A stretch of DNA of 64,000 nucleotides from the NCBI RefSeq assembly GCF_000027125.1, contig NC_017626.1; one strand, given 5' to 3'. The position numbers and the translations under genes were made by a program. Within the stretch, counting starts at the first letter, position 1, and each line of letters starts with the position of its first letter. This document shows, piece by piece, positions 20,933 through 21,840 of this stretch. Below the pieces are notes generated by a model. It did no database searches and was not told where the DNA came from. It worked only from the letters and a program-made list of their open reading frames with translations. This DNA is from Escherichia coli 042 (GTDB lineage: Bacteria > Pseudomonadota > Gammaproteobacteria > Enterobacterales > Enterobacteriaceae).

Positions 20933-21840
<908 letters not shown>

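Follow-up and report, generated by a model that had tools for sequence, protein, structure and literature searches.

How does an insertion sequence whose transposase is divided between two overlapping reading frames join them into a single protein? The question is raised by a unit on the minus strand of the window (the whole 64,000-nt stretch of DNA that was analysed), for which the original prediction had proposed a programmed -1 ribosomal frameshift at a heptamer A_AAA_AAG. Our analysis identifies the unit (20933-22364, 1432 bp) as a complete IS1397, a member of the IS150 subgroup in the IS3 family, and the heptamer is very probably its programmed -1 ribosomal frameshift site, a reading that we infer from the sequence together with the precedents of IS150 and dnaX. 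Both the element and its frameshift feature are already known, thus the finding is correct but ordinary, with little value beyond correct annotation. Two points go beyond routine, namely a possibly relocated frameshift cassette as compared with the rest of the IS150 subgroup, and an inconsistency between alanine and proline at the junction of the database proteins.

Identity and insertion site of the element

The boundaries of the element and of its target are as follows.

20933-22364, minus strand: complete IS1397 copy, with 99.9% whole-length identity to annotated copies and inverted repeats at both ends
22340-22364, minus strand: left terminal inverted repeat (IRL), TGAACTGCACCCCAAATGTTGGACA; 25-nt arms, 84% complementary, with TG start and CA end
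20933-20957, minus strand: right terminal inverted repeat (IRR), the 25-nt arm paired with IRL
22365-22368, minus strand: target-site duplication AAAC, the copy upstream of IRL, in the REP loop (from the flank sequences and the match to the empty site)
20929-20932, minus strand: target-site duplication AAAC, the copy downstream of IRR (same evidence)

By megablast the copy is 99-100% identical to sequences in E. coli genomes, where the annotated matches are named 'IS3-like element IS1397 family transposase'; over the whole length its nucleotide identity to annotated IS1397 copies is 99.9-100%, and its OrfAB protein is 100% identical to theirs. The element is therefore IS1397 itself, present once in the 64,000 nt, and nothing material sets this copy apart, although the site between yceF and rluC is occupied in only a handful of 5426 genomes. 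The general features of the IS3 family are found as well: the 25-nt terminal repeats read TGAAC...GTTCA, with the 5'-TG and CA-3' ends of the family; there are two consecutive reading frames, orfB being in the -1 frame with a 109-nt overlap with orfA; and AAAC stands on each side of the element and as a single copy in empty sites, in keeping with the 3-4 bp target duplication of the family. No sigma-70-like promoter was found within the element.

The insertion lies in the loop of a REP palindromic unit, within the BIME between yceF and rluC. The flanks read ...GCCTGATGCGGCGTAAAC|IS|AAACGCCTTATCAGGC..., and the palindromic unit rebuilt from both of them is GCCTGATGCGGCGT-AAAC-GCCTTATCAGGC. Such REP-specific insertion has been described for IS1397 and is its published hallmark (PMC1525189). 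The reconstructed empty site, with one AAAC, is found uninterrupted in 5419 of the 5426 complete E. coli genomes, so that the insertion is rare and presumably recent; full-length IS1397 copies are present in 1706 of these genomes, at up to 40 places per genome, and the copies in E. coli genomes number roughly 5200. The frameshift site and the rest of the copy are intact, and nearly all other E. coli have this position empty, which suggests that the element was mobile recently and is capable of more REP-targeted insertions. As side observations, the insertion splits a single REP unit of the rluC/yceF BIME (20917-20932 and 22365-22430), and the adjoining REP unit gives a weak, sub-threshold Rfam match to naRNA4, a REP-derived RNA.

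The two reading frames and the slippery heptamer

The coding features, together with the two A-runs in their overlap, are listed below.

21792-22313, minus strand: orfA, 173 aa from ATG 22313 to the stop TGA at 21794-21792, with helix-turn-helix domains (Pfam HTH_28, HTH_Tnp_1) and a leucine-zipper-like C-terminus, from ORF translation
20965-21834, minus strand: the orfB portion of OrfAB, 289 aa and the stop, with HTH_21 and the rve integrase core (Pfam rve, rve_2, HTH_21; NCBIfam NF033516)
21834-21840, minus strand: slippery heptamer A_AAA_AAG, putative site of the -1 frameshift, assessed by its phase, the open -1 frame, the database match of the fusion and its presence in relatives
21813-21818, minus strand: second A-run, GAG AAA AAA CGA, in a hairpin loop; a weaker alternative slip site with the in-phase tetramer A_AAA, non-canonical as a heptamer, from a sequence scan of the overlap

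The ATG at 22313 is consistent with the 1349-nt span of the RefSeq coding sequence, and GTG 22322 is an alternative start. The frame of orfB is -1 relative to that of orfA (22323-21687 = 636 = 3x212), as the original prediction had it for the transposase core. The same prediction had the -1 frame open from about 21843 down to the orfB stop; it is indeed open to 20965, whereas the opening is longer than claimed and begins at 21905, with no stop right after the heptamer or anywhere before the TAA at 20967-20965, and so the -1 frame leads from the heptamer into the downstream domain. The catalytic triad of the IS3-family DDE type is complete, with D295 (21432-21430), D355 (21252-21250) and E391 (21144-21142) in the spacing D(59)D(35)E and K398 at +7. 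When the frames are fused, OrfAB scores 387.9 bits against NCBIfam NF033516 (cut-off 160) in a single stretch of residues 62-442 that crosses the junction. The ORF listing also contains a 240-aa ORF from an internal GTG at 21687, near which HTH_21 begins, at residue 210 of OrfAB. Nothing is broken in the inverted repeats, in either frame, in the DDE triad or in the target duplication, and the presence of the insertion is polymorphic among genomes; from these features it is a reasonable inference that the copy is plausibly still functional.

The heptamer itself was found as predicted, on the minus strand. The plus strand reads CTTTTTT at 21834-21840, the minus strand reads AAAAAAG from 21840 to 21834, and the site lies in a run of seven As (21841-21835) in the context GG-AAAAAAA-GCGCC. 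Here the orfA codons are CTG GAA AAA AAG CGC, and the motif therefore stands as A_AAA_AAG in the zero-frame phase needed for tandem slippage. The 109-nt overlap contains no other X_XXY_YYZ heptamer. On both strands of the window together, 128,000 positions in all, the letters AAAAAAG are met 18 times; by chance about 0.005 occurrences would be expected in the overlap, which has 36 in-phase positions. Moreover, the heptamer is invariant across six IS1397 alleles that vary elsewhere in a 200-nt region. In E. coli A_AAA_AAG belongs to the three heptamers of highest efficiency (PMC4066793), since the one tRNA-Lys of this species forms a better pairing with AAA than it does with AAG (PMC5009743).

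The fusion point in database proteins

When the two frames are joined at the heptamer, a 449-aa OrfAB results, with the junction ...LLEKK-APGAGEKTKVIRSL...; the junction peptide expected from such a fusion is ...LLEKKAPGAGEK.... In a collection of 15 billion proteins this fusion is exactly matched by the 'IS3-like element IS1397 family transposase' of 81 contigs, which bears out the predicted OrfAB fusion of the IS3-family type. The protein is 100% identical to IS1397 transposases and 42% identical to that of IS150, with which it is colinear through the junction. RefSeq annotates the corresponding gene at the identical chromosomal site in other strains as 'programmed frameshift', with a two-piece coding sequence spanning 1349 nt. 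A fusion at the second A-run (...ELEKK-TKVI...) was considered as well and rejected, the product being absent from the same collection.

The commonest RefSeq model, however, sets the join one base after the heptamer and has proline instead of alanine, and therefore the database agreement supports the region and not the heptamer uniquely. In fact 154 of the 198 distinct IS1397 variants fetched carry the junction ...KK-P-PGAG. Identical DNA yields alanine if the re-read base is the G of the heptamer and proline if it is the next C (21833-21834, minus strand), so the differing junctions of the IS1397 database proteins result from a join that is often set one base past the slippery site. As tandem slippage on A_AAA_AAG predicts alanine, the common proline model is probably one base off. 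An A_AAA_AAC heptamer was at one point suspected in the 'KKP' variants, and it was rejected on the same grounds, that one DNA gives both junctions depending on the join.

Some irregular records deserve mention here. Two variant proteins (P0159 and P0187) read through the junction with one A missing per A-run (...LLEKSARSWRKTKVI...), and these are probably homopolymer sequencing errors in the source assemblies rather than natural in-frame fusions. Some other IS1397 copies are annotated as 'frameshifted' pseudogenes despite an intact heptamer, as in NZ_CP020545.1 (L020) and NZ_CP069630.1 (L023), the latter with 5 nt deleted at a point about 85 nt downstream of its heptamer.

Candidate stimulators around the heptamer

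Three elements flank the heptamer at close range.

21852-21856, minus strand: Shine-Dalgarno-like AGGAG, candidate 5' stimulator, with 12 nt from its last G to the second base of the heptamer; identified in the sequence, with a putative function
21843-21857, minus strand: small hairpin CAGGAG-cau-CUCCUG abutting the heptamer upstream, -6.8 kcal/mol, z = -1.9
21793-21830, minus strand: predicted 38-nt hairpin from +4 to +41, candidate 3' stimulator, from folding; it overlaps the orfA stop at the base and carries the second A-run in the loop

Shine-Dalgarno sequences that are stimulatory by experiment stand at an interval of 6-17 nt (PMC4066793), and the AGGAG of IS1397 is placed within this range. 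The search for a downstream stem-loop, which the original prediction had called for, yielded the predicted 38-nt hairpin, with -12.4 kcal/mol and z = -3.43; only 2 of 200 shuffles fold equally well, and its 0.33 kcal/mol per nt, against a mean of 0.19 for the 38-nt windows downstream, ranks 6 of 160. The fold of 134 nt is no better than that of shuffled sequences (z = -0.24). Empirical rules for hairpin and spacing have been derived from 271 IS3 elements (PMC4066793), and the AGGAG spacing, the hairpin position and its energy in IS1397 conform to them. Against the frameshift families of Rfam no relevant match was obtained at E <= 10. Among the six IS1397 alleles, the downstream hairpin shows one change from U-G to U-A, two changes in loops and one broken basal pair, while a C-to-U change in two alleles leaves a G-U pair in the small upstream hairpin. 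From the sequence the AGGAG and the downstream hairpin are likely stimulators of slippage, the support for the hairpin being thermodynamic, while its conservation in the Pantoea relative and across the alleles is not clear.

A similar arrangement is seen in IS911 and E. coli dnaX, which share with IS1397 the heptamer, an SD-like sequence about 10-12 nt upstream and a hairpin, predicted in the case of IS1397, a few nt downstream (PMC4066793, PMC5009743), although their signals have no sequence homology to those of IS1397; the downstream structure of IS911 is a three-way junction (PMC5009743). As for the small hairpin, it has a perfect stem of 6 bp, its 5' arm being the SD-like AGGAG and its 3' arm resembling an anti-SD sequence, and in the predicted fold it would sequester the AGGAG outside the ribosome. 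Its CUCCUG could instead pair with the CAGGAG at +4 to +9, with the heptamer enclosed in the loop.

Conservation of the heptamer in relatives

Relatives were collected by tblastn against plasmids as elements 45-53% identical and each matched in two frames; 16 of them were fetched, and IS150 from K-12 was added. An in-phase A_AAA_AAG is found in the overlap in 17 of the 17 relatives, and hence in 18 of 18 elements with IS1397, but at two positions. In 16 elements (IS150, ISKpn1, ISBth167 and others) it lies at ...ENAYLKK, 9 codons upstream of the IS1397 position, while only IS1397 and one element on a plasmid of Pantoea sp. SO10 (L003) have it 27 nt further downstream, at ...LLEKK. At the ENAYLKK position these two read YLKA or YLKV, and the IS1397 codons there, CTG AAA GCC, are non-slippery. 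The length of the A-run also differs, with A7 in IS1397 and the Pantoea relative against A6 in the 16 others.

The Pantoea element, at 53% identity, is the sole close relative of IS1397. It keeps the heptamer exactly while its second A-run differs; it also has the AGGAG, an SD-like sequence being present in only 2 of the 16 other relatives, and several pairs of the downstream hairpin are broken in it. Homolog searches with the IS1397 and Pantoea OrfAB proteins returned almost exclusively near-identical IS1397 variants; in a 50%-cluster search the next clusters were at most 43% identical, with no intermediate relatives for covariation in the IS1397-type hairpin, and blastn against plasmids found no DNA-level relatives of IS1397. 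According to the original prediction, homologs with a different fusion point would have spoken against the site. Formally such homologs exist, namely the 16 distant ones with the site 9 codons upstream, yet the heptamer of IS1397 is not refuted by them, because the codons CTG AAA GCC of IS1397 are non-slippery and the Pantoea relative shares the downstream site.

A model of transposase expression and its alternatives

In related elements OrfA is a regulator. In the model that we favour, ribosomes translating orfA would have tRNA-Lys on AAA in the P site and on AAG in the A site, and a fraction of them would slip back by one base so that both tRNAs re-pair with AAA AAA. The slipped ribosomes would go on in the orfB frame with GCG (Ala) and produce the 449-aa OrfAB, ...LLEKK-APGAGEK..., in which the DNA-binding domain of OrfA is joined to the DDE catalytic core, while those that do not slip would terminate 13 codons on at the UGA of orfA and release OrfA. 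The AGGAG 12 nt before the site and the 38-nt hairpin 4 nt after it form an arrangement like that of IS911 and dnaX and would be the likely stimulators. For IS150, the prototype of the subgroup, about 50% frameshifting on A6G has been reported (Vogele 1991, as cited in PMC5771124). By analogy with IS150 and IS911, the ratio of OrfA to OrfAB may set the transposition activity; the heptamer would then be the point where IS1397 sets its ratio of regulator to transposase, and therefore its rate of transposition.

The same OrfAB could also arise without any slip of the ribosome, if RNA polymerase added one A on the seven-A run and the transcript were translated in the ordinary way (GAA AAA AAA GCG...), the product being indistinguishable as a protein. 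Such transcriptional slippage is conceivable, since IS1447 of the IS3 family makes its transposase in this way and seven As are sufficient there (PMC6211511), and the A7 of IS1397 and its Pantoea relative, against A6 elsewhere, is in its favour. Slippage of this kind, however, is independent of phase, yet the run stands in the exact X_XXY_YYZ phase in IS1397 and in each of the 17 relatives, 16 of them with no more than A6; moreover the usual minimum for efficient transcriptional slippage is nine A or T (Larsen 2000, as cited in PMC6211511), and an SD-like element and a hairpin at the spacing of ribosomal frameshifting would be left unexplained. We therefore regard it as an improbable origin of OrfAB.

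Alternatively the ribosome could shift mainly at the weaker in-phase tetramers 24-30 nt downstream, A_AAA (21816-21813) or A_AAG (21810-21807), with the junction ...ELEKK-TKVI.... Both tetramers precede the orfA stop, in a stretch without a -1-frame stop; of all tetramers A_AAG slips most readily in E. coli (PMC4066793), and two frameshift products of IS629 are reported in a reference listed in PMC5771124. But tetramers reach levels about ten-fold below those of the most efficient heptamers and depend on a strong stimulator (PMC4066793); these two are located within the apical loop of the predicted hairpin and have no suitably spaced structure; in addition, no protein with this fusion is in the collection, and the Pantoea relative has the exact heptamer and a different second run, all of which makes a main shift at the tetramers very improbable. 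It is also imaginable that no fusion takes place, so that OrfB alone is made from an internal start such as GTG 21687 and the heptamer simply happens to code for lysines; the 240-aa ORF from this GTG exists, and some IS3 members have independent OrfB products, for example among the three products of ISSau2 (PMC5771124). Independent initiation is less likely because conserved OrfAB sequence extends upstream of this GTG, where the -1 frame is open for 72 codons and the residues align with conserved OrfAB (VIRSLR..LLKAAGLARSTLYYQ). Besides, HTH_21 starts at residue 210, near the GTG, OrfB alone would be without the DNA-binding domain of OrfA, and the heptamer has been kept in phase in all 18 elements. 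Taken with these points, the absence of any fusion seems extremely improbable to us, and -1 ribosomal frameshifting at A_AAA_AAG is retained as the reading of the site.

A differently placed signal within the IS150 subgroup

The two positions of the heptamer come with different surroundings. In the 16 YLKK-type elements an 11-bp stem, GCCUUAGUUCA...UGAACUAAGGC, begins at +7 and closes a hairpin of 48-75 nt (e.g. L006:609-690, L019:763-835); it is kept in 14 of 14 aligned relatives, with two compensatory pairs and several G-U/A-U exchanges. IS150 is known to have a stem-loop stimulator, and this resembles the conserved YLKK-type stem. IS150 is like IS1397 in the heptamer, in the layout of orfA and orfB and in the DDE spacing, and its OrfAB is 42% identical and colinear; it differs in having the heptamer at ...YLKK followed at +7 by the 11-bp stem GCCUUAGCUCA...CGAGCUAAGGC. 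IS1397, compared at 21843-21870 with the 16 elements (L004-L019), has neither of these, that is, no YLKK heptamer and no 11-bp GCCUU...AAGGC stem. ISKpn1 of Klebsiella, with an OrfAB 49% identical, also has an in-phase A_AAA_AAG and is REP-specific like IS1397 (PMC1525189), but its heptamer position and long-range stem are of the IS150 type, unlike those of IS1397.

One possible history, whose chances we consider evenly balanced, is that the IS1397 lineage (IS1397 and the one Pantoea plasmid element) has rebuilt its signal. The ENAYLKK site, as the ancestral one of IS150 type, and its long-range 11-bp stem would have been lost, and a new in-phase A_AAA_AAG would have arisen 27 nt downstream, together with a short hairpin and, upstream of the site, an SD-like AGGAG; the 3' arm of this hairpin lies roughly at the old 3' arm. 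If this is true, the lineage shows how a frameshift cassette can be rebuilt in nature without loss of the fused protein. In any case the IS150 subgroup allows frameshift cassettes at two different positions to be compared as they occur in nature.

Another variation is seen among the relatives from Bacillus, Priestia, Acinetobacter and Pseudomonas, which carry two overlapping in-phase heptamers, U_UUA_AAA and A_AAA_AAG (UUUAAAAAAG; L012-L018, e.g. L016:609-618).
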